Both the position numbers and the translations under genes were made by a program. The notes under the pieces are model-generated. The model was not told the origin of the DNA, did no database searches, and saw nothing but the letters and a program-made list of their open reading frames with translations. 64,000 nucleotides of DNA from Bacteroidota bacterium (GTDB lineage Bacteria; Bacteroidota; Bacteroidia; Bacteroidales; WCHB1-69). Location of the stretch: assembly GCA_009786185.1 (NCBI GenBank), contig WQTS01000137.1:855-64854 (forward strand), in the 5' to 3' direction. Positions within the stretch are counted from its first letter, which is position 1; each line of letters begins with the position of its first letter. Shown one piece after another: positions 3,042 to 64,000 of this stretch.

Positions 3042-3641
3042 TTAGTGCGTTATTTTGTCATTCCATAAGTCTTTTTTTTGGGTTGTGGGCTGTATTTGCA
3101 TGCCTGCCCACGTCGAAATAGCTCCTTTTAAAGCTCCGCCTCCATCCATTGGAGCCGGAACCCAAGCGGTGAGTATTTGTTTTAGCTGGTTTATTTCATT
3201 TTCAAGATTGCTAATTTTGGAGGCAGTTTTTTCAGCAACAACCAACCCATCATTTTTACCTCCATTAAATTCAATTACCTTATCGCACTCAACTTTAACA
3301 TCGCCTTTTATTTTCAATGTAATATCTTCATCAATAACTCCGGTAATACTTGCAATTTCCGAATACGCCACTACGTTCATCCACGCCATGTCGCCGCCTG
3401 TTTTGTCGCAAATCAATACAACGCTACCCTTTTTAGGTTTAATGATAAAATTGTTTTCGTTTCCGTCCGAAACCGCCGCCAAATGAATGCCGGTATATGT
3501 AGTTCCTGCAATATCCACATCGCACGTTTCATCGCCCACTTCCACAACTTCTGCCGAGATAAACAGATTACGGTTGTCCGCCTTTCCGTTGTCGTTGGAC
3601 ATTTCTTTCAATAGCCTTTTTATTTCGCGTGCCTTGTTCAC
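3042..3641 (-). CDS. baseplate central spike / assembly protein (gpV or Mu gp45-like)
   Basis: 199 aa, immediately downstream of the hub gene with a 4-nt overlap. The call rests on position and size. Confidence 0.4.
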   Translation of the reverse strand: MNKAREIKRLLKEMSNDNGKADNRNLFISAEVVEVGDETCDVDIAGTTYTGIHLAAVSDGNENNFIIKPKKGSVVLICDKTGGDMAWMNVVAYSEIASITGVIDEDITLKIKGDVKVECDKVIEFNGGKNDGLVVAEKTASKISNLENEINQLKQILTAWVPAPMDGGGALKGAISTWAGMQIQPTTQKKDLWNDKITH

Positions 3642-4609
3642 TTTGACAATATTTTACCTAATGTTATCACTCTTACTCCACCCTCTTTACTAAATGTGGT
3701 TTCAACTTCGAGAACATAATACGTTCCGTCCTTATATTCATAATCGGGGTCAATAATGGTTGCCTGGTATCCGGAACTACAAACCGGTATCAACCAAGCC
3801 TGAAAACTCCCCTCGTATCCGTCATAGCTTTTCGATTCATATTCCTGCTGTGCCAATAGTTTAATGCTTTTTTGGTCGCTTGTACTTGTTTTTCGTGTTA
3901 CGCTTTCCCCACCCATGTCGCCAAACTCGTACTTTTTCGTTTTTCCATCAGGGCCGGTATATTCAATAGTAACCTTTATCCTCCTGTTCTCTTTTTTCTT
4001 GTATTTCAAGTCTGTGCCTTCTGCATCAATATTTTTGGAAAAATCATATTTTACCTCTCCGAATATTTCGGAATATTGCGGGTGAATGTGCAATACATTA
4101 TCCTTTAAATAAATATTTGGCATTGCCTCCTCCTGAATCTTCTTTAGAACATCATAGCCGTTTACATTTTTAATTACAAATTTGTCATAAGAAAAGTCAT
4201 AATCGCAATCCAATGAAAACTGTTTGTTGTGTTTTTTACCGACCTCCGTATTTACATAGTTGAGAATGTCCTTTACTTTAACATTCGTAAACTCCTTATT
4301 AGGAATGTCAACACGATATAAAAAAATCCCATCTTCGCAGTTCAACACTAAAGAACCGCCATCCGTACTGATGCTTTCCACATAGCCTTCAAATTCGGTT
4401 TCAAGGTTATCATCGTAGCCAAGTTCAATTTTTATTTCATCACTCCGCTTTATCTTTTCATCAATGTTTAAAGCCTTGTTAAATACCGTTGCAGGAAGTG
4501 TAATGGTAGCCGTATCTGCCAATAATTCTACAGAGCGCTTTACTTTTACACTCTCAATCATTTTCAGATTGTAATTGCCAATACTAATTTTCCAGTTCAT
4601 TTTAAACAT
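3638..4609 (-). CDS. baseplate hub protein (late control D / Mu gp44-like)
   Basis: 323 aa, second gene after the tape measure. The N-terminus (WKISIGNYNLKMIESVKVKRSVELLADTATITLPA) follows the gpD-like pattern. Confidence 0.5.
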   Translation of the reverse strand: MFKMNWKISIGNYNLKMIESVKVKRSVELLADTATITLPATVFNKALNIDEKIKRSDEIKIELGYDDNLETEFEGYVESISTDGGSLVLNCEDGIFLYRVDIPNKEFTNVKVKDILNYVNTEVGKKHNKQFSLDCDYDFSYDKFVIKNVNGYDVLKKIQEEAMPNIYLKDNVLHIHPQYSEIFGEVKYDFSKNIDAEGTDLKYKKKENRRIKVTIEYTGPDGKTKKYEFGDMGGESVTRKTSTSDQKSIKLLAQQEYESKSYDGYEGSFQAWLIPVCSSGYQATIIDPDYEYKDGTYYVLEVETTFSKEGGVRVITLGKILSK

Positions 4610-29173: not shown

Positions 29174-29425
29174 TATACATAATACACCCACCTATACAAA
29201 CCTCCTATAGCCCTATAGTGTGCACTATACCCATAAAAAATACACTTTTTAGCGCAAGTATTGCAAAACTAATTGATTTGCAATGCAATACAAGAAATTT
29301 GGCGTTAAAACTCAATATATTATGCCTGTATTATCCCCCCCCAACTCGTTTAAAAAAGTGCCCATCTGCTGCTTAAAAAATGTATTATGTGGGTGTAACT
29401 CGTGCAAAATTTTATCATAAAAATA

Positions 29426-29469
29426 CGGTAACTCGGCGGTAACTCAACGGTAACTCAACGGTAACTCAA
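29426..29469 (+). repeat. four tandem 11-bp repeats (cggtaactcRR)
   Basis: The sequence is cggtaactcgg cggtaactcaa cggtaactcaa cggtaactcaa. Related half-sites gtaactcg and caactcg lie at 29395 and 29342. Confidence 0.85.
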
Positions 29470-29945: not shown

Positions 29946-30413
29946 TTATTTTTTAGCCTTCCCAACCTTCTGCTCCGGAATAACCTCCTTGCGTATCTCA
30001 AATCCTTCATTCATAATAAGAAGCGCAGATCTTTCTGAAAAAAGCTCGTTGTCAATAGGTTTTGGCTTTAAAACATATTTCCAAACTATAGATTGCAACG
30101 GAGCTAAATTAACGGTCAAAAAATCAACGCGCTCTTCTTTTTCTACCGGTACGTCAGCGGTATTCAGCCATTCAATTTTAGAAGTGAAAAGTTCTTGCCG
30201 TAAGGAAATTGCTGTTTGGTTAATGCCGTTAATGAATACAAAAGTTACTACAATGTTATTGGGGTTTTCTTTATCTATGGTAACATTTTGGTTGTATTGC
30301 CATAGCAATTCGCCTTTTTCAGTAGTAAGTCTGTTGCTTTGGGCGAAAGTGGCAGGAAGAGCAGTAAAGAAAATCGCTATTAACCAGCAATTTATGCAAA
30401 TTATTTTTTTCAT
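29946..30413 (-). CDS. secreted hypothetical protein
   Basis: The start was moved to MKKIICINCWLIAIFFTALPATFAQ (a signal peptide). The 35-aa track extension (MRFLATLGMT...) is encoded by repeat elements. Confidence 0.5.
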   Translation of the reverse strand: MKKIICINCWLIAIFFTALPATFAQSNRLTTEKGELLWQYNQNVTIDKENPNNIVVTFVFINGINQTAISLRQELFTSKIEWLNTADVPVEKEERVDFLTVNLAPLQSIVWKYVLKPKPIDNELFSERSALLIMNEGFEIRKEVIPEQKVGKAKK

Positions 30414-30426
30414 GTTTTTATTTTTT

Positions 30427-30488
30427 ATATAAACTACCCCGTCTCGCTTCGCGAGACACCCCTTCAAAATTTGAAGGGGATTTTTCTT
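30427..30488 (-). repeat. 62-nt double-hairpin repeat element, intergenic copy
   Basis: This is the exact reverse complement of 36198-36259. It contains the hairpins ccccttcaaa/tttgaagggg and gtctcgc-gaa-gcgagac. Confidence 0.85.
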
Positions 30489-30514
30489 GGTCATTCCAAG
30501 CGTAGCGAGGAATC

Positions 30515-31648
30515 TCATGCTTTAACTTTAAACTTGTTTTTTACCGGATTCGCATAAATATCCAACAAATATTTCATCATTTTTTCTTTAGAAATATCCT
30601 GAACCATAGATTGTTCGTTCAAATAATGGATAAAAGCGCCTTTTTCTTCTTCTGTATAATGCGTAGAAAATTTGTTTGAATTTTCCTGCAAATCTATAGC
30701 AATATAATTTTGCGGATATAAAAAATAATATTCGTAAATTTGGCGGTCAATCTGATCGCAAAGCAATGCAAGTTTGTCATTTAGAGATAATTCTTGCGGT
30801 ATATTTTCAAATTCTTGTTGCAGCGGTTTGCCAATTGCAAGATGCACTTCGCCTTTAAATCCGATAATTCCTTCGATGATGCTTTTTACGTCTTCGCCGG
30901 GTTGTTTTACATAAGGAGCATTTTCGGAAAGCGCTAACTCGCGGGCTTTTAATTGTGCGCAAGGCTCATATTGATACGAAATGGCAACCGGCGTAATTTG
31001 CATACGTTTCAAAGTTTCCATGGCATGTTGCGGAGCAGCCAAAGTTAACATTTTTAAAAGTCCTTGCTGGGTTTTATCATCTCCGTTTTTCGTTCTGCCG
31101 TTGCCCTGGGCAATCCACACCGATTCTTTTTCTTCAAAAATACTATGATGTATGTAGGAAGACAAGAGTTGCGTGTTCATCATCTTTTCTTTTAATGTGC
31201 CGGAGCGCAGCACTAAAAACATTTGGTGCATCCGTGCAAGCTCAACAAAAAGCGGACTTGAGATAAGATTATCGCCAATAGCGGAGCGAGAGGCTTCATA
31301 GCCTTTTTTAAAATAATAAACTTGTAAAAATGCTGAATCTAATACAATATCTCGGTGGTTACCAATAAATAAATACTGATTTTTAGGATCAATATGTTCA
31401 ATTCCGGAATAATGGACATGGGTACAGGTTTTCTCAAGAAAATAGTGGAAAATCTTTACAGCAAAAGCCAAATGAAGTTCATGGCGGGTCTTGCAAGCTA
31501 AGATGTTTGTTATCCATTCATTTACATCAATTTTATCTTCAAAAACAGATAATTGTTGTATAAATGTCGGGTCGGCAAATAGCTTTTTCGCTGCCTGCAT
31601 GGTTTCTTCTTCCGTGTAGGGGCGAATATTATCGAAGGAATGTTTCAT
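30515..31648 (-). CDS. acyltransferase (PlsC-like glycerolipid acyltransferase family)
   Basis: 377 aa. The NHRDIVLDSAF motif resembles the acyltransferase His-Asp box. Confidence 0.5.
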   Translation of the reverse strand: MKHSFDNIRPYTEEETMQAAKKLFADPTFIQQLSVFEDKIDVNEWITNILACKTRHELHLAFAVKIFHYFLEKTCTHVHYSGIEHIDPKNQYLFIGNHRDIVLDSAFLQVYYFKKGYEASRSAIGDNLISSPLFVELARMHQMFLVLRSGTLKEKMMNTQLLSSYIHHSIFEEKESVWIAQGNGRTKNGDDKTQQGLLKMLTLAAPQHAMETLKRMQITPVAISYQYEPCAQLKARELALSENAPYVKQPGEDVKSIIEGIIGFKGEVHLAIGKPLQQEFENIPQELSLNDKLALLCDQIDRQIYEYYFLYPQNYIAIDLQENSNKFSTHYTEEEKGAFIHYLNEQSMVQDISKEKMMKYLLDIYANPVKNKFKVKA

Positions 31649-35425: not shown

Positions 35426-36877
35426 ATGAGCACCTACAGAATTGAAAAAGACACCTTAGGTGAAGTTCAAGTGCCTGCAAATGCGCCTTGGGGGGCGCAA
35501 ACCCAACGCTCGTTAAACAACTTTAAAATCGGCAACGAAAAAATGCCGGTGGAAATTATAAATGCAATAGCCGTAGTAAAAAAATCTGCGGCTTTTGCTA
35601 ATTATGACTGCGGCGTGCTACTAAGGGAAAAGTGCGAAGCGATTGAAAGAGGTTGCGATTACATCTTAGCCGGCAAACTCCCCGACGCATTTCCGTTGTC
35701 GGTATGGCAAACAGGTTCCGGCACACAAACCAACATGAATCTTAATGAGGTAATTGCGAATTATGCCAAAACTTTAACTCCACCTGTAACGCTGTCGCCC
35801 AACGACGATGTAAACAAATCGCAATCCACCAATGATGTGTTTCCTACGGCCATGCGCATTGCTGCGTTGCAAGCCACTTGCACCGGCTTGCTTCCTGCAT
35901 TGGAAAAACTTACATTATCACTCTCCGAAAAATCAAAAGAGTTTGTGGCGATTAAAAAAATCGGACGCACCCATTTAATGGATGCAACACCACTCACTTT
36001 AGGCGAAGAGTTCTCGGCTTTTGCCGCACAGCTGTCATTCGGCTTAACCAATATTAAAAACGCACTTTATCCCATAACCGCCTTACCTATTGGCGGAACC
36101 GCCGTAGGAAACGGCATCAACACCCCACAAGGTTATGACGAAAAAGTGGTAAATTACATCAACCAATTTACCATCATAGAAGGGAGAAGGAAGGCGGAAG
36201 AAAAATCCCCTTCAAATTTTGAAGGGGTGTCTCGCGAAGCGAGACGGGGTAGTTTATATGAATTTTCACCCGCCCAAAACAAATTCGAAGCCATGGCCTC
36301 CCACGACGCCTTCGTAGAGCTTTCGGGCGCACTCAAACGCCTCGCCGTCTCACTCATGAAAATCGCTAATGACATCCGATTGTTAGGTTCAGGTCCGCGA
36401 TGTGGTTTAGGCGAGCTACTGCTTCCCGAAAACGAGCCCGGTTCCTCTATCATGCCCGGAAAAGTAAATCCTACACAATGTGAAGCAATTACCATGGTAT
36501 GCTGCCAGGTAATTGGCAACGATGTTGCGATTACTACCGGCGCCATGCAAGGACATTTGCAATTAAATGTATTTATGCCGCTCATTGCCAAAAACATTTT
36601 ACAATCTATTCATTTATTGAGCGATGCGATGGATTCCTTTAATGATCATTGCGTAATTGGCATCGAACCGAATTTAAAAAACATTAAAAAACATTATGAG
36701 AACTCATTAATGTTGGTTACCGCCTTAAATTCTGTAATTGGTTATAGTAATGCTGCAAAAATAGCACAACATGCGCATAAAAATGATTTGACGCTGAAGG
36801 AGGCTGCGTTGGAGTTGGGGTTGATTTCGGAAAAAATGTTTGATGAGGTGATGGGAGTGGCTTTTCTATCAAAGTAA
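35426..36877 (+). CDS. fumC: class II fumarate hydratase carrying an in-frame insertion of ~27-29 aa
   Basis: The signature GSSIMPGKVNPTQCE and an alignment to the FumC pattern along its length support the call. An extra segment, IIEGRRKAEEKSPSNFEGVSREARRGSLY, precedes the conserved NKFEA motif. Confidence 0.9.
   Translation: MSTYRIEKDTLGEVQVPANAPWGAQTQRSLNNFKIGNEKMPVEIINAIAVVKKSAAFANYDCGVLLREKCEAIERGCDYILAGKLPDAFPLSVWQTGSGTQTNMNLNEVIANYAKTLTPPVTLSPNDDVNKSQSTNDVFPTAMRIAALQATCTGLLPALEKLTLSLSEKSKEFVAIKKIGRTHLMDATPLTLGEEFSAFAAQLSFGLTNIKNALYPITALPIGGTAVGNGINTPQGYDEKVVNYINQFTIIEGRRKAEEKSPSNFEGVSREARRGSLYEFSPAQNKFEAMASHDAFVELSGALKRLAVSLMKIANDIRLLGSGPRCGLGELLLPENEPGSSIMPGKVNPTQCEAITMVCCQVIGNDVAITTGAMQGHLQLNVFMPLIAKNILQSIHLLSDAMDSFNDHCVIGIEPNLKNIKKHYENSLMLVTALNSVIGYSNAAKIAQHAHKNDLTLKEAALELGLISEKMFDEVMGVAFLSK
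36198..36259 (+). repeat. 62-nt double-hairpin repeat element, copy inside the fumC coding sequence
   Basis: It is identical to the reverse complement of 30427-30488 (aagaaaaatccccttcaaattttgaaggggtgtctcgcgaagcgagacggggtagtttatat). Confidence 0.85.
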
Positions 36878-46831: not shown

Positions 46832-48274
46832 CTATTGATTTGCCTCTATTTTATTTTGCAGTTCAGGAGAGCTGATGCCACGCCGTTGCGCAGTTTTCCA
46901 ATATTTTACCGCTTCTTCTTTTTGCCCTAACTCAATCGCAATGTCGCCCAATAATAGATTCAAATCTGCCACAAAACTATTTTCAAATGTGAACGATAAC
47001 GCTTGTTTAGCAGCTCTTAGCGCACCTTCAAACTGTTTTTCTTTGTACAAAGCCAACGCCAATCCGTATTGAATGGTAGCATGAGTGGGAAAATATTCTT
47101 CTATCAGTTTTTCATTTGCAACAATGGTCTGATAATCTTCCAATTTTGATAAAACATATAAATAATCTTCCCAAACGGAGAATTGCGTTTCATCTAACTC
47201 TATACATATCTCATAGAATAACTTAGCTGCCGGAAAATTATTTTCTAATGCGTTGAGTTTCGCCACGGCAGTCCAGCCTTCCAAATCGTAAGGGTGCGCT
47301 TCAGCGGTAGTTAATGCTAATTTTTTTGTTTTTTCCAAAATCTCAGGAGTTTGCAAACGAAAAGCATTAGCCAAATAGGTTTTCAGAATCGGAATTTTCT
47401 CTTCAATTTCCAACTCTTTACTCGAAAAAGCCCTTAGTAACGCCTCAAAACTTTCTTCCGGCTTTTTGGTTATCTCGTAATAGTTCGATAACATCAAATT
47501 CAAGACAGGATTTTGTGCATCTATTTGCATAGCTTCCCGAAAAAAAGGGAACGCTTTATCCGGCATGTTGTTCGACAAATAGATTTCTCCTGCAATGATA
47601 TAATATTCAATCTCATGAGGATAAAGCTCTAACAGTTTTTCATATTCCCGCACGGCATTTTTTACGTCATTCAAATAGAGCCATATATTTTTTTTTACTT
47701 CGGTAATCGCATCATTTTTCCCCACAATACTTTCTATTCTATCATATACTTTTATGACTTCTTGCAATTTACCTAAGTGTGCATAACTGTTTGCCAGCGA
47801 CATTAAATAATACTCATTATTATATTTGACTTTGCAAATATCTTCCCAAATTTTCACGGCGCTTGCATAATCGCCCAATTTTTCGTAAACCTCCGCCAAA
47901 TCAATTTGATACCACTCATTTTTCTTATCTAATTTAATAGCTTCTTTTAAGTAATGAGAAGCCAACAGATAATCTTGCTGTTCTGCAGCTATTTTGTAGA
48001 GCAAATAATAAGCAGCATCATTTTTCGGGTTTTGTTTGACCACCTCTTGAAACGATTTTGTAGCGCCGGAATAATTCTGTGAATAAAACTCCCGAAGTCC
48101 ATCGGCAAAAATAACGGATTGCTTGCGCTCATCGGCAGTAATCTCCGTCTGTTTAACCGGTTGCTTTGCGGATTTTTTTTGCTTTTTTTGAGCATAAGCG
48201 GGAGGCGAGATGAGGAGGAAAACAGAAAGTAGGAGGCAGAAAGTGGTGTGCGGTATGCGGTGTGCGGTGTTCAT
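46832..48274 (-). CDS. TPR-repeat protein with signal peptide
   Basis: 480 aa with repeated TPR-like A..Y/L..A patterns. The first 11 codons are encoded by a heptamer repeat. Confidence 0.65.
   Translation of the reverse strand: MNTAHRIPHTTFCLLLSVFLLISPPAYAQKKQKKSAKQPVKQTEITADERKQSVIFADGLREFYSQNYSGATKSFQEVVKQNPKNDAAYYLLYKIAAEQQDYLLASHYLKEAIKLDKKNEWYQIDLAEVYEKLGDYASAVKIWEDICKVKYNNEYYLMSLANSYAHLGKLQEVIKVYDRIESIVGKNDAITEVKKNIWLYLNDVKNAVREYEKLLELYPHEIEYYIIAGEIYLSNNMPDKAFPFFREAMQIDAQNPVLNLMLSNYYEITKKPEESFEALLRAFSSKELEIEEKIPILKTYLANAFRLQTPEILEKTKKLALTTAEAHPYDLEGWTAVAKLNALENNFPAAKLFYEICIELDETQFSVWEDYLYVLSKLEDYQTIVANEKLIEEYFPTHATIQYGLALALYKEKQFEGALRAAKQALSFTFENSFVADLNLLLGDIAIELGQKEEAVKYWKTAQRRGISSPELQNKIEANQ
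48245..48270 (+). repeat. GCGGTRT heptamer array (left arm)
   Basis: The sequence is ggtgt gcggtat gcggtgt gcggtgt. It is the reverse complement type of the array at 48353-48394. Confidence 0.75.
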
Positions 48275-48352: not shown

Positions 48353-48394
48353 CACCGCACACCTCATACCTCATACCTCATACCGCATACCGCA
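48353..48394 (+). repeat. six tandem YACCKCA heptamers (right arm)
   Basis: The sequence is caccgca cacctca tacctca tacctca taccgca taccgca. It encodes the last 7 aa and the stop of the kinase gene. Confidence 0.75.
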
Positions 48395-49332
48395 TTACTC
48401 TGCATGATCCTTGCACCGATGGTTTCTATGCACCTTGCACTTAGTTTTGAAGCTAATGCGCCGGCATCGGCAACAGTATAGTCGTTTATTAAACCATATA
48501 AAAATCCTGCGGCGTAAATATCTCCTGCGCCGGTAGAATCTTTGCACTGCGCTTTTGCAGCAGGAATTACCGTAGTTTCTCCGTTTACGCGCGCCAACGA
48601 ACCATGCGCGCCCAATTTTACTACGGAAACAGAACAGTAGGTAGATAAAATCTCCAACGCTTCGTGTTCTTTTTTTCCGGTAAATGCAAATGCTTCTTCT
48701 TCATTTGCAAAAATGATGTCCACGTAATCGCGAAGTAGTTCTTCTACCAAAGGATGCATCACCTCTACCAAATTATAGCTTGCCATATCCATGGAGATTT
48801 GCAGTCCGCATTTTTTTGCCAACTTGCAGATACTTAGAATTAAATCCTTATTAAAAATCAAATACCCTTCCACATGAATGATGTCATACAAAGAAAATAT
48901 GCGTTCGTGCAAATCATCGGGTGTTTGGGTGGCGGCAGCGCCAAGGTAAGTGGCAAAAGTACGTTCACCGTCTTTGGTAATAAAGGTGGTGGCAATTCCC
49001 GTATCAATTTCCGAATGAAGAAGGTGTGTAGCAACTCCTGCTTTTTCCATATCTTTTTGGAAAAAACATCCCATATCGTCCTCCCCTATCTTTCCAATAT
49101 AACCTGTTGGAGCACCCAACTGCGCCAATCCGTAAATGGTATTTGAGGTAGAGCCTCCCGAAACCACCGTTTGTTTTAATCCGTGGATTTCTCTGTGGAT
49201 TTCGTTTTTCAGGTCGACATTGATCATCTCCATGCCTCCTTTTTTTAAGCCGAATTTTTTTAATAATGATTCGTCGTGTACTTCAACGAGTATGTCTACT
49301 AAGGCATTTCCGATTCCGAGGATTTTTTTCAT
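48364..49332 (-). CDS. PfkB-family sugar/nucleoside kinase
   Basis: It has an N-terminal GIGNALVDIL and the C-terminal ATP motif DSTGAGDIYAAGFLYG. The start was moved to MKKILG (ATG at 49332). Confidence 0.75.
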   Translation of the reverse strand: MKKILGIGNALVDILVEVHDESLLKKFGLKKGGMEMINVDLKNEIHREIHGLKQTVVSGGSTSNTIYGLAQLGAPTGYIGKIGEDDMGCFFQKDMEKAGVATHLLHSEIDTGIATTFITKDGERTFATYLGAAATQTPDDLHERIFSLYDIIHVEGYLIFNKDLILSICKLAKKCGLQISMDMASYNLVEVMHPLVEELLRDYVDIIFANEEEAFAFTGKKEHEALEILSTYCSVSVVKLGAHGSLARVNGETTVIPAAKAQCKDSTGAGDIYAAGFLYGLINDYTVADAGALASKLSARCIETIGARIMQSNAVCGMRYEV

Positions 49333-49510
49333 TAAGTAAAGTGTTGATATTTTCGGCAAAAATAATAAAATCGCATAATTTTGAAAGTAGCGTAAATTTT
49401 TAAAGAAAAGTTAGGGATGTGCAAGCACGTTTATTAGGCGTTCCTAATATGCAGTCTGTCATTTGTTCAACTCCACATTAAAATTGACTTTTCAAAAAAC
49501 ATCTTCCCTC

Positions 49511-54896: not shown

Positions 54897-55164
54897 AATG
54901 TCAATTCTTTAATCTATAGTCCCCTTCTGAATCTATCTTGCCCAATCATCATAAAACCATCTGAGATTCACGTCTAACGGTTTTTGAGTTATTATTAAGT
55001 CATCTTTATTTCTTTCAACAAAATACATTATATTCCAGCCTCTTTTAAAAGAACAATCATACTCACATGGAAAATCCGCAGTCCATTGCCCCCCTTTGGC
55101 CAATCCAAACTGACCCCTTCTCGCCGATTTAAATTGACCCCCTGAAAACAGAGAAAGAATATCT

Positions 55165-55236
55165 TTAACCCAAATTACGCATTAGAAAAAATCTACTAAT
55201 TTTGTGTTCCAATTTCTAATGCGTAATTTGGGTTAA
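55165..55236. repeat. perfect 24-bp inverted repeat with a 24-nt spacer
   Basis: ttaacccaaattacgcattagaaa (55165-55188) pairs with tttctaatgcgtaatttgggttaa (55213-55236). It abuts the truncation point of istA. Confidence 0.85.
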
Positions 55237-55773
55237 ACTGATATTGATGGAACTCGTGTATCGGTAGAAGTATTTGTAGCCATTTTGGGATGTAGCCAAC
55301 TTACCTACGTGGAAGCCGTTTACAGCCAAAAGAAAGAAGATTTGATCCGTGTGTGTGAAAATGCGTTACATTATTTTGCCGGCGTTCCCCATGCCATTGT
55401 GCCCGACAATCTTAAATCTGCGATAACCAAAGGCAGTAAATATAAAGCCATTATCAATCCCGACTTTGCCAATTTTGCAGAACATTATGCTACTACTGTT
55501 ATTCCGGCAAGAGCCTATAAGCCAAAGGATAAATCTTTGGTTGAAGGGACAATAAAGCTGATTTACAAGAACATTTACACCAAATTTGACATCAGAGTAT
55601 TTTATGATATTGAGAGTTTAAACGCTGCCATTCGCACGGGATTGGAGTTACACAACAATACTCCCTTTGTGGGTCGAGGATACAGCCGCAGACAACAATA
55701 TGAAGAGATTGAACGTGAAGCGCTTGGACAAACTTCTACCCGAAGTGGAGCAAAACGATATTCCAGTTCATGA
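55237..55773 (+). pseudogene. istA: IS21 transposase IstA, C-terminal fragment
   Basis: The frame is open from 55237 (TDIDGTRVSVEVFVAILGCSQLTYVEAV...AIVPDNLKSAI...YKPKDKSLVEG). The HTH and the N-terminal catalytic part are missing. Confidence 0.7.
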
Positions 55774-59815: not shown

Positions 59816-62800
59816 ATGACAAAAAAATTTACAAAACAGTTTTTAGGCAAAACGCTATGGTGCGTAATTGCCTTTTTTGCGATTTTTTATACCGCAAATG
59901 CAGTCAACGGAACTTTCGGCGGCGGTAACGGACAACCCGGTACACCCTACATCATTCAAGACGCAGCCGATTTGGACGCCGTGCGCAGCAACTTATCCGC
60001 ACATTACAAACTTGCCAACGACATTGACCTCACCGATTATTTATCTGAAGGGGGTGCCGGATTCGCCAAATGGAGCAACTCTCGCTGGATGCCCTTAGGA
60101 AACGCTACCACTCCATTTACAGGATCTTTCAACGGAGACGGATATAAAATCACAGGTTTAAGGATAAACCGGGGTCCTAATCTTGATTACGTCGGGCTTT
60201 TCGGATATACGAACAACGGCGCAAGTATTGATAATTTGGGTGTAGAAGCTCCATATATTTCTGCTGATGAATACGTTGGTATTCTTGTGGGATATAACGA
60301 TAACGCTTCTATTACCAACTGTTACGTTACCGGATATGTAGTTGCGAATGGGCTTGCCGGAGTATTGGTGGGAGAAAACCTCGGAACCATCTCCTACTGC
60401 TACGCTACCGGATATATAGGTAGCAATTGGTTTGTCGGTGGATTGGTGGGACAGAATTTTGGAACCATCACCCACTGCTACGCTATGGCAGAGGTGTACG
60501 GAAACTCTTGCGTAGGCGGATTTGTGGGAAGAAACAACATTACTGCTGCTATTTCCAACTGCTACGCTACCGGAAAAACGTATGCAGGTGAGTTCTATTA
60601 CGCTAAGGGCGGATTTGCAGGTGATAATTATGCAACTATCTCCAACTGCTTCTACGATTACGAAACCACAGAGCAGGGCAACGGTGTGGGTCCGGGCTGG
60701 GAAAGTGGTTACAACGTTGCCGGGGTAACCAAAAAATCTACCGCCGAAATGCAAACCGAGGCAACCTTTACAGCCGCCGGTTGGGATTTTGATGACACTT
60801 GGAAAATTTGCGAAAACCTGAGTTATCCCCTCTTCAAATGGCATATCGTAAACTGTTTTGACTATAATTATTGCAGCGGTACGGGCACTTCTGCAGACCC
60901 CTACCTCATCTGCAACGCCAAACAACTTGACAATGTACGATTAGCACTTGACAAACATTACAAATTAAATAACGACATTGACCTCACCGCTTACTTAGCC
61001 CCCGGTGGCGCAGGATACGCCAAATGGGGCGCAGCAGGATGGATGCCGTTAGGCAATGAGATTACAAATTTTTCAGGCAAATTCAACGGCGGCGGATTTA
61101 AAATCACAGGCTTGTGGATAAACCGCAGCGGAACATATTATATCGGATTATTTGGATATACGCAAGGCTCATTTATAGAAAATTTAGGTGTTGAGATTGC
61201 AGCCGCGGGTATTAAAGGAGGCAGTTTTTCCGGCGGATTAGTAGGAGAAAACATAAGTACTACCATTTCCAACTGCTACGTTATAGGAAATGTTACAGGA
61301 GATATTTTGGTTGGCGGATTAGTAGGAGAAAACACATTTGCTAGTACTATTTCCAACTGCTACGCTATAGGAGATGTAACAGGAACTTTAGTGGTCGGTG
61401 GATTGGTGGGATATAATTTCGATGCAAGCCCTATTTCCAACTGTTACGCTGCTGGAAATGTAAATGGAGAAAGTTCGAGTGCAGGAGGATTGGTGGGTTA
61501 TAATGAACTTAGTACTATTTCCAATTGCTACTTCGATAATGAAATCGCAGGTGGAATACCTGGGGTTGCCGACAACGTTTTGAGCACAATAGACATTACC
61601 GGCAAAACCACCGCCGAGATGCAACAGCAAGCCACCTTTTCCGGTTGGGATTTTGATGATATTTGGAATATTTTTGAAGATTGCAGCTATCCGTACCTCC
61701 AATGGCAACCCGTAACTACTTGCTTAGACCTTATGTTTTGCGGCGGTACGGGCGCATGGAATAACCCATACATCATCTGCAATCCCAAACAACTTGACCT
61801 TGTTCGCTTAGCATTCAACAATTCCGATTACTATTATTATAAACTCAACAACGATATTGACCTCACCGACTACCTTGCCCCCGGTGGCGAAGGTTACGCC
61901 AAATGGGGCGCAGAAGGCTGGTTGCCGCTCGGCGATGATGTTACACATTTTACAGGCACTTTCAATGGCGACGGACATAAAATCACCGGCTTGTGGATAG
62001 ACCGCAGCGGAACTGACTATGTAGGATTATTCGGATATACGGGATCCGCAACCATTGAAAATTTGGGTGTTGAAGTTACCGCGGCGGGAATTCAAGGCAA
62101 AAACAATGTAGGCGGTTTGGCAGGATACTCCTTCTGGACTGGCATAGAAAAATGTTATGCAACCGGAGCCGTTACCGGCAATGCGTTTGTTGGCGGATTG
62201 GTGGGACAACTCAATGATTCCTACACCGGAAACTGTTATTCAACGTGTGCTGTAACCGGAACGGAAAACAATATCGGCGGTTTGGTGGGTATGAATTATG
62301 AAGGTTATATTGACTGGTGCTACGCTGCCGGAACTGTATCGGGAAGCTATGCTGTAGGAGGATTGGCGGGAACAAATCATGAGGGTGCAATCTATGGCTG
62401 TTTCTACGATTACGAAACCACAGGACAACCCACCGGCGTGGGCGAAGAGATTGGCGGTGATACGTACGTTACCGGAAAATCCACCATTAGAATGAAACAG
62501 CAACTCACCTTTAACGGATGGAATTTCCACGAGAAATGGAGTATTTGCGAAGGTTACTCTTATCCTTTCCTTCAATGGCAAACGGAGATAGAATGCCCTG
62601 AAGTTACCTTCTGCGGCGGTACGGGCGAGGTCGGCTCACCCTACCTTATCTGCAACGCCGAACAACTCAACAATGTTCGTTTTGCGCTTGACAAACACTA
62701 CAAACTTGCCAACAATATTGACCTCACCGATTACTTAGCCCCCGGCGGAGAAGGTTATACCAAATGGGACGATGAAGGCTGGTTGCCGATAGGAGGTAGT

Positions 62801-64000
62801 TTTATGTATTTTACCGGCACATTCAACGGCGCCGGACATAAAATCACCGGCTTGTGGATAGATAGAGATGAAATGGCTTATGTAGGATTATTCGGACGTA
62901 TTGAAGATGCAAACATTGACAGTTTGGGCGTAGAGATTGCCGCAGCAGGAATTAAAGGATATGAATCTGTCGGCGGATTGGTGGGATTGACTGAAAACGC
63001 TACCATTTCCAACTGCTACGCTACCGGATATGCAAATGGAAAATATAATGTCGGCGGATTAGCAGGATGGATAGGTGGTACTATTTTCAACTGCTACGCT
63101 ACCGGAAATGTAAATGGATACCATTCTGCCGGCGGATTGGCGGGAGCCGTTTATGGTACTATTTTCAACTGCTACGCTACCGGAGATGTAACGGGAGTTG
63201 GCAGTGAAGGCTTTGGCGGATTGCTGGGAGTTGCTAATGGTACGATTTATAACTGCTACGCTACCGGAGATGTAAATGGAAACAATTCTAGCGGCGGATT
63301 GCTGGGAGCCGGCGGAGAAGATTGGGGCGTTAGCATTTCCAACTGCTATGCTACGGGAAATGTACATGGAGCGACTTATGCCGGCGGATTAGTGGGACAG
63401 ATAATCGGTACTATTTCCAACTGCTACGCCGCAGGAAGTGCTACAGTAACCGACTACGAGGCAGGCGGATTGGTGGGAGGAAATTGGGGTACTATCTCCA
63501 ACTCCTTCTTCGATGACGATGTTGCAGGAGGGATGCCCGGCGTAGGCTCCGGCGACGACAGCGGCGTTACCGGCAAAACCACCGCCCAAATGCAACAACA
63601 AGCCACCTTTACCGGTTGGGATTTTGACGATATTTGGAAAATTTGCGAAAACGAAACCTATCCCTTCTTACAATGGCAAACAGAAATTGAATGTGAAGAA
63701 TCATCGCTCTTCTGCGGCGGTACGGGCACAAGCACAGCCCCCTACCTCATCTGCACAGCAGAGCAACTTGACAAGGTACGCTTAGCGCTTGACAAACATT
63801 TTAAACTAAAGAATGATATAGATTTAACCGCTTACCTTTCAGATGGCGGAGCAGGTTTCGCAAAATGGGGCAGCGCAGGCTGGGAACCGCTCGGCGATAA
63901 CTCTACAAATAACAACACAACCCGTTTTACCGGTTCGTTCAACGGCGCCGGACATAAAATTACCGGTTTATGGATAAACCGACCCACTACGGATAATGTT
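59816..64000 (+). CDS. giant secreted GLUG-motif repeat protein (partial, continues past the window end)
   Basis: My own translation: MTKKFTKQFLGKTLWCVIAFFAIFYTANA (signal peptide), then tandem modules. The CxGTG...PY(L/I)IC module starts at 60872, 61739, 62612 and 63713 are all in frame with the ATG at 59816. Repeated (V/A)GGLVG..N.GTISNCYATG units are present. It is absent from the ORF track because it has no stop in the window. Confidence 0.8.
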   Translation, partial: MTKKFTKQFLGKTLWCVIAFFAIFYTANAVNGTFGGGNGQPGTPYIIQDAADLDAVRSNLSAHYKLANDIDLTDYLSEGGAGFAKWSNSRWMPLGNATTPFTGSFNGDGYKITGLRINRGPNLDYVGLFGYTNNGASIDNLGVEAPYISADEYVGILVGYNDNASITNCYVTGYVVANGLAGVLVGENLGTISYCYATGYIGSNWFVGGLVGQNFGTITHCYAMAEVYGNSCVGGFVGRNNITAAISNCYATGKTYAGEFYYAKGGFAGDNYATISNCFYDYETTEQGNGVGPGWESGYNVAGVTKKSTAEMQTEATFTAAGWDFDDTWKICENLSYPLFKWHIVNCFDYNYCSGTGTSADPYLICNAKQLDNVRLALDKHYKLNNDIDLTAYLAPGGAGYAKWGAAGWMPLGNEITNFSGKFNGGGFKITGLWINRSGTYYIGLFGYTQGSFIENLGVEIAAAGIKGGSFSGGLVGENISTTISNCYVIGNVTGDILVGGLVGENTFASTISNCYAIGDVTGTLVVGGLVGYNFDASPISNCYAAGNVNGESSSAGGLVGYNELSTISNCYFDNEIAGGIPGVADNVLSTIDITGKTTAEMQQQATFSGWDFDDIWNIFEDCSYPYLQWQPVTTCLDLMFCGGTGAWNNPYIICNPKQLDLVRLAFNNSDYYYYKLNNDIDLTDYLAPGGEGYAKWGAEGWLPLGDDVTHFTGTFNGDGHKITGLWIDRSGTDYVGLFGYTGSATIENLGVEVTAAGIQGKNNVGGLAGYSFWTGIEKCYATGAVTGNAFVGGLVGQLNDSYTGNCYSTCAVTGTENNIGGLVGMNYEGYIDWCYAAGTVSGSYAVGGLAGTNHEGAIYGCFYDYETTGQPTGVGEEIGGDTYVTGKSTIRMKQQLTFNGWNFHEKWSICEGYSYPFLQWQTEIECPEVTFCGGTGEVGSPYLICNAEQLNNVRFALDKHYKLANNIDLTDYLAPGGEGYTKWDDEGWLPIGGSFMYFTGTFNGAGHKITGLWIDRDEMAYVGLFGRIEDANIDSLGVEIAAAGIKGYESVGGLVGLTENATISNCYATGYANGKYNVGGLAGWIGGTIFNCYATGNVNGYHSAGGLAGAVYGTIFNCYATGDVTGVGSEGFGGLLGVANGTIYNCYATGDVNGNNSSGGLLGAGGEDWGVSISNCYATGNVHGATYAGGLVGQIIGTISNCYAAGSATVTDYEAGGLVGGNWGTISNSFFDDDVAGGMPGVGSGDDSGVTGKTTAQMQQQATFTGWDFDDIWKICENETYPFLQWQTEIECEESSLFCGGTGTSTAPYLICTAEQLDKVRLALDKHFKLKNDIDLTAYLSDGGAGFAKWGSAGWEPLGDNSTNNNTTRFTGSFNGAGHKITGLWINRPTTDNV

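Follow-up and report, generated by a model that had tools for sequence, protein, structure and literature searches.

How does a fumarase come to carry, in the middle of its reading frame, a piece of DNA that also lies between genes, and does the enzyme have any use for it? The question is raised by fumC, the gene for a class II fumarate hydratase in a stretch of 64,000 nucleotides (contig WQTS01000137.1 of the Bacteroidota assembly GCA_009786185.1), which we call the window. A preliminary description of the window had reported an extra segment in FumC, encoded in part by a repeated sequence, and had proposed that a mobile palindromic element was inserted there in frame. We conclude that the fumC repeat is very probably a tolerated and translated copy of a dispersed, non-autonomous, selfish repeat of termite-gut Lentimicrobiaceae, similar to the repetitive extragenic palindromes (REPs) and the Rickettsia palindromic elements (RPEs).

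The host gene and its extra segment

The gene and the segment in question are as follows.

35426..36877, plus strand: fumC, class II fumarate hydratase, the host gene; a single intact open reading frame (ORF) of 483 aa
36173..36262, plus strand: extra segment of FumC, codons 250-279, IIEGRRKAEEKSPSNFEGVSREARRGSLYE; placed by phmmer blocks against the PDB and by the predicted local distance difference test (pLDDT)

The Pfam domains PF00206 and PF10415 (Lyase_1 and FumaraseC_C) are found in FumC homologues, and the protein has the domain architecture, the GSSxMPxKxNP signature loop and the collinearity with solved FumC that mark the class II enzymes. In a phmmer search of the PDB, the solved FumC structures align as two blocks (query 1-249 with chain 3-257 and query 280-474 with chain 261-455), so that residues 250-279 (30 aa) stand for three residues in the solved fumarases, a net addition of 27 aa. 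The extra segment is therefore real, and only its proposed start at 36175 has to be corrected, being off the codon boundary by two bases. The frame is preserved through the one ORF, and the catalytic GSSIMPGKVNPTQCE loop, read directly, is unbroken, as the preliminary description had stated.

An AlphaFold2 model of FumC has a mean pLDDT of 77 and template modelling scores of 0.73-0.81 to the solved FumC structures. The pLDDT falls below 50 at residues 252-274, which are flanked by helices 237-248 and 286-320; the latter is the NKFEA helix, whose far end runs into the SS loop. In this model, the insert fits a disordered surface loop joining two helices, in keeping with the added loop that had been proposed. 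The peptide GSLYEFSPAQNK, like SPSNFEGVSR, is a predicted junction-spanning (tryptic) peptide of the insert. When the window gene is compared with its orthologue in L092, the part outside the insert gives dS 0.85, dN 0.07 and omega 0.083. We therefore regard fumC as a working gene, and the suspicion that it might be a pseudogene does not survive this strong purifying selection.

A dispersed double-hairpin repeat

A search of the window with a 59-mer from the insert finds exactly two copies, 36201-36259 (plus strand) and 30427-30485 (minus strand), where shuffled sequences lead one to expect none; direct reading lengthens the identity to 62 nt. A repeat finder gives arms of 74 nt at 93% identity, and a covariance model built from 61 copies returns the two known copies in the window and none besides. 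The parts of the two copies and of their surroundings are these.

36198..36259, plus strand: 62-nt repeat copy within fumC, identical to the reverse complement of the intergenic copy; covariance model, 88 bits
30427..30488, minus strand: second copy of the element, intergenic; covariance model, 89 bits
36179..36205, plus strand: purine-rich left-hand module GAAGGGAGAAGGAAGGCGGAAGAAAAA, translated EGRRKAEEK; read directly, different in every orthologue
36207..36227, plus strand: hairpin 1, CCCCTTCAA-ATT-TTGAAGGGG, 9 bp with a 3-nt loop; encodes (S)PSNFEG
36229..36245, plus strand: hairpin 2, GTCTCGC-GAA-GCGAGAC, 7-8 bp with a GAA loop; stem variable and co-varying across the family
36246..36259, plus strand: conserved tail GGGGTAGTTTATAT, encoding (R)GSLY; its G...GGTAGT is (near-)invariant in the 61-copy alignment
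30490..30514, minus strand: another repeat module, GATTCCTCGCTACGCTTGGAATGAC, of the 'EIPRYAWND' type ('MRFLATLGMT' in another frame), abutting the intergenic copy

The double hairpin folds as DNA at -16.3 kcal/mol with a z-score of -6.5 on either strand, and as RNA in its context at -35.5 kcal/mol (z -3.4). Both the 62-nt identity and the two strong hairpins of the preliminary description are thus confirmed. The intergenic copy occupies a spacer of about 100 nt between two minus-strand genes, the ORF 30515..31648 and a gene whose start (MKKIICINC...) lies at 30413. The stop codon of ORF 30515..31648 marks the start of the GATTCCTCGCTACGCTTGGAATGAC module, and the same module order, GATTCCTCGCTACGCTTGGAATGAC type plus double hairpin, recurs in frame in the FumC of P0003, P0004 and P0009. 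About 1 kb away from the intergenic copy, at 29425-29469, the 11-mer ACGGTAACTCA forms 4.1 tandem units. Rfam gives no match in the window, its hits up to E 10 being at chance level only, and the element has no match among viral contigs.

The two copies belong to a family with a constant layout: an A-rich lead, hairpin 1 (CCCCTTCAA/TTGAAGGGG), TG, a GC-rich hairpin 2 with a GNA loop, and the tail GGGGTAGTTTATAT, 46-62 nt in all. A scan of one representative genome per species with hairpin 1 alone (CCCCTTCAANNNTTGAAGGGG) gave at least 91 stretches. Roughly a third of those listed are unrelated simple hairpins; some 55 listed copies continue with TG, a GC-rich hairpin 2 (GNA loop) and GGGGTAGTTTATAT, none of which the query had forced. 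At least 33 copies, spread over 27 stretches, belong to the Lentimicrobiaceae metagenome-assembled genome (MAG) Emb289P3bin108, and more come from Th196P4bin9 and Nc150P4bin20, all three of which we take to be termite-gut MAGs. With a stricter pattern, metagenome contigs gave at least 118 stretches with at least 138 distinct copies, and those listed stem from a few JGI samples, the same that supplied the fumC orthologues. These counts were taken from DNA because short peptide queries lack power: a 45-aa tandem query found five tiny ORFs, and the 32-aa insert found two hits among 1.84 billion representatives. The earlier characterisation of the element as dispersed and REP-like therefore holds, for it stands in many unrelated places.

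Since hairpin 1 was fixed by the search pattern, its invariance is no evidence. Hairpin 2 was left free, and it occurs with at least five stems (TCTCGC/GCGAGA, TCCGGC/GCCGGA, CCC/GGG, ATTTTGC/GCAAAAT and TCGCC/GGCGA). In the 61 copies, all seven of its seven pairs are altered on both sides, and cells with a two-sided change number 100, against 32 +/- 5.6 after shuffling (0 of 500 shuffles) and 2-28 in slid controls. The hairpin-2 subfamilies follow the sample or genome and not the insertion site: 16 of 18 copies in Ga0209628 are CCC-GAA-GGG, and 8 of 13 in JGI24702J35022 are ATTTTGC-GAA-GCAAAAT. Perfect matches to the window 59-mer stand at seven places in Emb289P3bin108, the MAG of another species; the two window copies are therefore alike because the family consensus is conserved or homogenised, and not through a recent duplication in this genome.

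To the left of the element, the sequence has its own character. The adjoining 42 nt are rich in purines: over 170 family copies their mean share is 0.64 (0.49 on the right), and 19% of these copies reach at least 80% purine on the left, compared with 0% on the right. The left flank is often made of 7-8-nt tandem repeats whose sequence varies among copies. Inverted dimers are seen in L064, L067 and L089 and make up a minority of the copies. The core, hairpin 1-TG-hairpin 2-GGGGTAGT, is also present in a Chitinophagales bin, in Flavobacteriales ih4 and in other Bacteroidia bins. It was further observed in Francisella (including F. philomiragia ATCC 25015) and Facilibium (L073 5271-5333, L088 2391-2453 and L074 5250-5313); the copy in a Francisella MAG lies antisense within the ORF of an ABC-transporter ATPase, the Pfam domain of which is stretched by about 30 residues.

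Genomic placement and the favoured reading frame

Among the genome-sample copies listed, 35 of 60 are intergenic. The gene upstream of them shares their strand 22 times versus 9; between the tail, the complement of which provides a TAA, and the end of a convergent neighbour lie 0-30 nt; and divergent spacers hold only 2 of the 31 intergenic copies listed. A promoter role had come to mind from the tail TAGTTTAT, which resembles a -7 box (TAnnTTTG in Bacteroidetes), and from some copies that lie 15-25 nt before an ATG. We rejected it as the main role on account of the rarity in divergent spacers, the preference for 3' ends, and a spacing between the TTTG of hairpin 1 and the tail that ranges from 22 to at least 28 nt.

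The metagenome copies listed include 119 that are scorable, that is, far enough from contig ends. Forty of them lie inside frames that run on either side for at least 40 codons without a stop (the other 79 do not), and 34 of these 40 share one sense frame, TCC CCT TCA AAT TTT GAA GGG GTG, which reads SPSNFEGV...RGSLY. Two of the rest use the other open sense frame and four are antisense. Four of the six frames are stop-free, and a bias of this size towards one has P ~2e-15. The favoured frame is the most hydrophilic (grand average of hydropathy, GRAVY, -1.28); the next, at -1.02, is the antisense frame seen in an HlyD-like gene. The peptide of hairpin 1 is nearly alike on both strands (SPSNFEG and TPSKFEG).

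According to Pfam, the hosts are real proteins from about 20 families, with domains that flank or span the insert. They include MurF, a GH2 glycosidase, FtsK, RmlD, EPSP synthase (AroA), HemN, a CCA-polymerase/M16 fusion, Asd (at the N-terminus), an LpxL-like protein (at the C-terminus), AlaRS (three), LpxK (three), ABC-F ATPases, shikimate dehydrogenase (AroE), chorismate synthase (AroC), a nucleotidyl transferase, and proteins sorted by the type IX secretion system. L092, the contig with the closest fumC orthologue, has a second, slightly degenerate copy at 3396-3475; it is in frame and lies close to the N-terminal end of a HemN/radical-SAM gene (3278-4450, ...EREEKSPSNFEGAPEGQGSLYK...).

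Two other accounts of the insert are best judged by these in-frame copies. The insert might be missing from the mature protein, through translational bypassing or removal at the RNA level, as in T4 gene 60 or the mitochondrial 'byp' elements. Bypass elements carry stable hairpins inside coding regions, and so does fumC here. However, every intragenic copy can be read through open, no stop codon follows a take-off site, and skipping would free the insert from any frame and from lengths in multiples of three, yet the copies keep overwhelmingly to one frame. We consider this account exceedingly improbable. Alternatively, the peptide (K/I)SPSNFEGV...RGSLY could be a functional module, a recognition, localisation or degradation tag attached to many housekeeping proteins. 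The same peptide in the same frame in some 20 unrelated protein families, and the extreme frame bias itself, are what such a tag would produce. Against this, the omega of the insert within fumC is about 0.9, the part encoded by hairpin 2 varies freely (VSREARRG, VPEGRG, VDGEAGRG) and tracks the DNA stem and not an amino-acid pattern, and copies on the opposite strand give a different peptide that is likewise tolerated. A preference for the most hydrophilic frame is a simpler account of the bias, and we judge a tag to be very unlikely.

History of the insertion in fumC

The closest FumC proteins (74-87% identity, 447-505 aa; the named ones from Lentimicrobiaceae or Bacteroidales) differ in length, and all of this variation is confined to one loop. 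From KVVxYI to NKFEAMASHD, the four outgroups have 28 aa, and the length in the 44 ingroup sequences ranges from 28 to 78 aa. The loop holds several repeat peptides: SPSNFEGV...RGSLY (in 13-14 sequences), ESRKQKAE, EIPRYARND, AGQARND, YGLTVLRSYGL, NSQLSTLNSQLST and others. More distant Bacteroidales FumC proteins cluster at 450-460 aa and are without the segment.

These alignments, which the preliminary description had called for, bear on the simplest deflationary account: that FumC had this segment ancestrally, as a lineage-specific loop, or that a chimera was assembled at the repeated 62-mer. Many close orthologues do have a long loop here too. However, the loop is short in the more distant Bacteroidales, the same DNA stands at well over 100 unrelated loci, and each half of fumC lines up with orthologues that have the element in this very position on independent contigs. 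This account has a negligible chance of being right and is already refuted by these observations; neither an ancestral loop nor an assembly artefact is upheld.

The right junction, ...GGGGTAGTTTATAT followed directly by GAATTT, is common to the window, L092, L094, L095 and L096, which suggests one old insertion in fumC. The preliminary description was correct in seeing an inserted repeat; a recent hop in this genome is not supported, as orthologues of about 85% identity have the insertion too, with an identical right junction. For L092, that identity of about 85% in DNA extends over NfeD-FloA-fumC only, and synteny is gone beyond. Around the fixed right end, the site varies: hairpin 2 is of the TCTCGC or the CCC type, by lineage, and the left module is always different (a purine tract, GAAAGCA x3, TCAGTTT x3.5, or one of two other hairpin repeats). 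AlaRS (L125, L176, L200) and RmlD (L045 versus L171) were also seen to be hot spots, with the right junction fixed and the left module and hairpin 2 variable.

On a neighbour-joining tree of FumC, the double hairpin is patchy. P0009 and P0026 are 93.5% identical upstream and are separated by a clean 69-nt indel that corresponds to the element (L099/L100), with no target-site duplication (flanking direct repeat) at that indel; the close orthologues P0026, P0037 and P0018 are entirely without the element. In the fumC copies of L092, L099 and P0008, the stems have decayed without compensation. The L092 copy folds at -9.4 kcal/mol against the -16.3 kcal/mol of the window copy, and the L099 copy is degenerate. 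Because the stems of L092 and L099 are broken, the structure is not kept within fumC in every lineage.

Selection on the insert

In the same comparison of the window fumC with L092, the 30 insert codons give an omega of 0.94, an imprecise value derived from about nine substitutions (2 synonymous, 7 non-synonymous). Their synonymous divergence (pS) is 0.10 versus 0.51 outside the insert (P ~3e-4). Wherever the two inserts differ, it is L092 that has moved away from the consensus, and these changes break the stems. As a protein, judging from these substitutions, the insert looks unconstrained (neutral).

The low synonymous divergence brings in another explanation, that the element is kept for a role of its nucleic acid in cis (stabilising mRNA or blocking its decay, causing a pause or attenuation, or providing a DNA binding site, all proposed for REPs) and that the peptide is a by-product. 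The strong hairpins, the co-varying hairpin 2, a synonymous divergence five-fold below that of the rest of fumC, the 22 to 9 preference of intergenic copies for gene 3' ends, and the recurrence of the core with GGGGTAGT in Chitinophagales, Flavobacteriales and Francisella all speak for it. The fumC site itself speaks against it, since the copies in L092, L099 and P0008 have decayed uncompensated and the close orthologues P0026, P0037 and P0018 wholly lack the element. In addition, the one-frame bias of the intragenic copies indicates a constraint on the peptide and not on structure alone, and Rfam holds no matching family. We regard a maintained role in cis as unlikely.

Comparison with known repeats

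The RPEs, as described in PMC10969869 and PMC3733652, are short dispersed palindromic repeats, a large share of which stand in frame in unrelated housekeeping genes, where they encode a conserved peptide and the host protein is spared. The element resembles them in lying in frame in many unrelated protein genes with the ORF preserved. It differs in its hosts (Bacteroidota, and Francisella for the core, versus Alphaproteobacteria), in its length (46-62 nt versus about 100-150 bp), and in its two adjacent hairpins with a GGGGTAG tail. The element behaves like an RPE but, by its length and host, lies outside the RPE family.

With the GTAG/CGTC REPs, the element shares GC-rich stem-loops, compensatory stem variants, short loops, and a GTAG adjoining a hairpin, as well as placement downstream of genes, between co-directional or convergent ORFs, with some inverted dimers and some intragenic copies (PMC3733652). 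Its copy number, strong hairpins, mostly extragenic location and 3'-end preference are those of a REP. In contrast to canonical REPs, which have a 5'-GTAG at the foot, the GTAG here follows GGG on the 3' side of hairpin 2; in the place of the canonical GT[AG]G, 0-2 nt 5' of the foot (PMC6006769, PMC3733652), there is GGGGTG, and GTGG in some variants only. The sequence-invariant hairpin 1 is an extra, and the share of intragenic copies, about one-third, looks high compared with the cases in PMC3733652. Di Nocera et al. (2013) described intragenic REPs, including different REPs at about the same site of recB in related Xanthomonas species, and the Bacteroidetes repeats in their survey are of the CGTC type only (PMC3733652). 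We rejected the CGTC tag as a defining feature here, as it appears on the reverse strand of some hairpin-2 variants only.

Quentin et al. (2018) place in Bacteroidetes Y1/HUH transposases (subclasses 2.4 and 2.6) together with REPs or 'atypical secondary structures' that have copies elsewhere in the genome, and mention frame-keeping REP insertions within the tnpAREP genes themselves (PMC6006769). Here, no tnpA(Y1) stands near any copy examined. The preliminary description knew in-frame colonisation from Rickettsia and not as something described in Bacteroidota; it is seen here, and in-frame REPs outside Rickettsia have already been published (PMC3733652, PMC6006769). Of the traits of IS200/IS605 elements, we see hairpins, the lack of terminal inverted repeats and target duplication, and an orientation bias; the 5' flank is only loosely conserved (WAT), where those elements insert 3' of a fixed tetra- or pentanucleotide, and no tnpA was found in 772 kb.

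The same description had called the element 'MITE-like'. [quoted passage not shown] It has, however, no terminal inverted repeats, as the left end RAAWAT-CCCC is not complementary to the right end GGGGTAGTTTATAT, and no target-site duplication, and we do not retain the label. The palindromic amphipathic repeat coding elements (PARCELs) share with it palindromic coding DNA, here SPSNFEG and TPSKFEG on the two strands of hairpin 1; as portrayed in PMC2996958, they are tandem intragenic repeats of surface proteins, whereas the units here are single and dispersed, with two-thirds of them intergenic. The closest systems in behaviour are the RPEs and the intragenic GTAG/CGTC REPs. A literature search found no paper on the repeat family or the phenomenon in Lentimicrobiaceae. 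The kind of element is known; the family, the host clade and the frequency appear new.

A model for the fumC insertion

We suggest that the element entered fumC in an ancestor of several species, at the loop that joins the helix ending ...YINQF to the NKFEA helix. One of its sense frames is stop-free and encodes a very hydrophilic peptide, EKSPSNFEGVSREARRGSLY, rich in Gly, Ser, Pro and charged residues; fumC would therefore be translated straight through the element. The outcome would be a fumarase with a disordered loop 27 residues longer, which the enzyme appears to tolerate, the peptide being presumably harmless. What holds pristine copies to the consensus of the genome would be copy correction, whether by gene conversion or by re-insertion, and not selection within fumC. 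The spread of the family may have depended on a trans-acting enzyme that recognises hairpins in single-stranded DNA, for which a Y1/HUH transposase of the RAYT (REP-associated tyrosine transposase) or IS200 type would be the most plausible candidate. Once colonised, the loop may then have served as a landing and expansion site for further short repeats.

Besides the imprecision of the insert omega, several points weigh against this model. Selection on nucleic-acid structure would account equally well for the small number of synonymous changes in the insert. The covariation of hairpin 2 offers less help than it might seem to, as covariation in a DNA palindrome can come from template-switch mutation and does not by itself prove function. 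Both samples demanded a perfect hairpin 1, with the result that decayed copies are under-counted, and some of their material is shared, the WQWP01 MAG consisting of the Ga0123356 contigs. We saw no orthologous site that was strictly empty and showed exact boundaries or a target duplication; active transposition is therefore not demonstrated. A six-frame translation of 772 kb contains no motif of the HUH...Y(I/V)xxNP type (RAYT/IS200), and the genes beside copies in other phyla are, by Pfam, ordinary housekeeping genes with no transposase among them. That the insert is translated, we infer from the frame statistics only.

A bolder interpretation is that an active, lineage-wide system donates loops to proteins: a single peptide-friendly frame, the repeated seeding of the same permissive loops in essential enzymes (FumC, AlaRS, RmlD), concerted evolution within genomes, and growth of short repeats on the 5' side would be its parts. 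Dozens of housekeeping genes could also be co-regulated through the shared hairpin or peptide, if an RNase, an RNA-binding protein or a protease used it as a common handle. We think this rather unlikely. If true, the core in Francisella implies either that a hairpin-specific mobilisation enzyme, so far unrecognised, has been widely transferred or that the element is very old. We prefer the tolerated selfish repeat.

Other repeats in the window

Heptamer tandems at 48245-48270 and 48354-48395 (GGTGTGC x3.7; ACCTCAT/ACCGCAT x5-6) flank the spacer of two minus-strand genes. A PfkB-like kinase ORF (48364..49359) owes its C-terminus ...AVCGMRYEV* to them, and a TPR ORF (46832..48274) its N-terminus MNTAHRIPHTT. 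GMRYEV also occurs in the FumC insert of P0005, and the variants GERYEV and GMWYEV in L018 and L084. At 55164-55188 and 55213-55237, a perfect inverted repeat has arms of 25 nt, which are 24 nt apart. From 60000 to 64000 there is a long nested repeat array, with units of 78/84 nt and super-units of about 870 nt, which presumably encodes a giant repeat protein and is unrelated to the fumC element.

Significance

For annotation, the element matters in that it lengthens proteins, creates spurious ORFs (MRFLATLGMT...) and can seed misassemblies of metagenomes. Its one-frame bias, the sample-specific subfamilies of hairpin 2 and the variable left module make it a tractable case in which to weigh transposition, gene conversion and palindrome-driven mutation. 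The insertions chart the permissive loops of FumC, AlaRS, MurF, AroA and other enzymes, and they indicate that in-frame palindromic repeats in essential genes, best known in Rickettsia, are frequent in free-living gut Bacteroidota too, with about 30% of the sampled copies involved and about 20 protein families.

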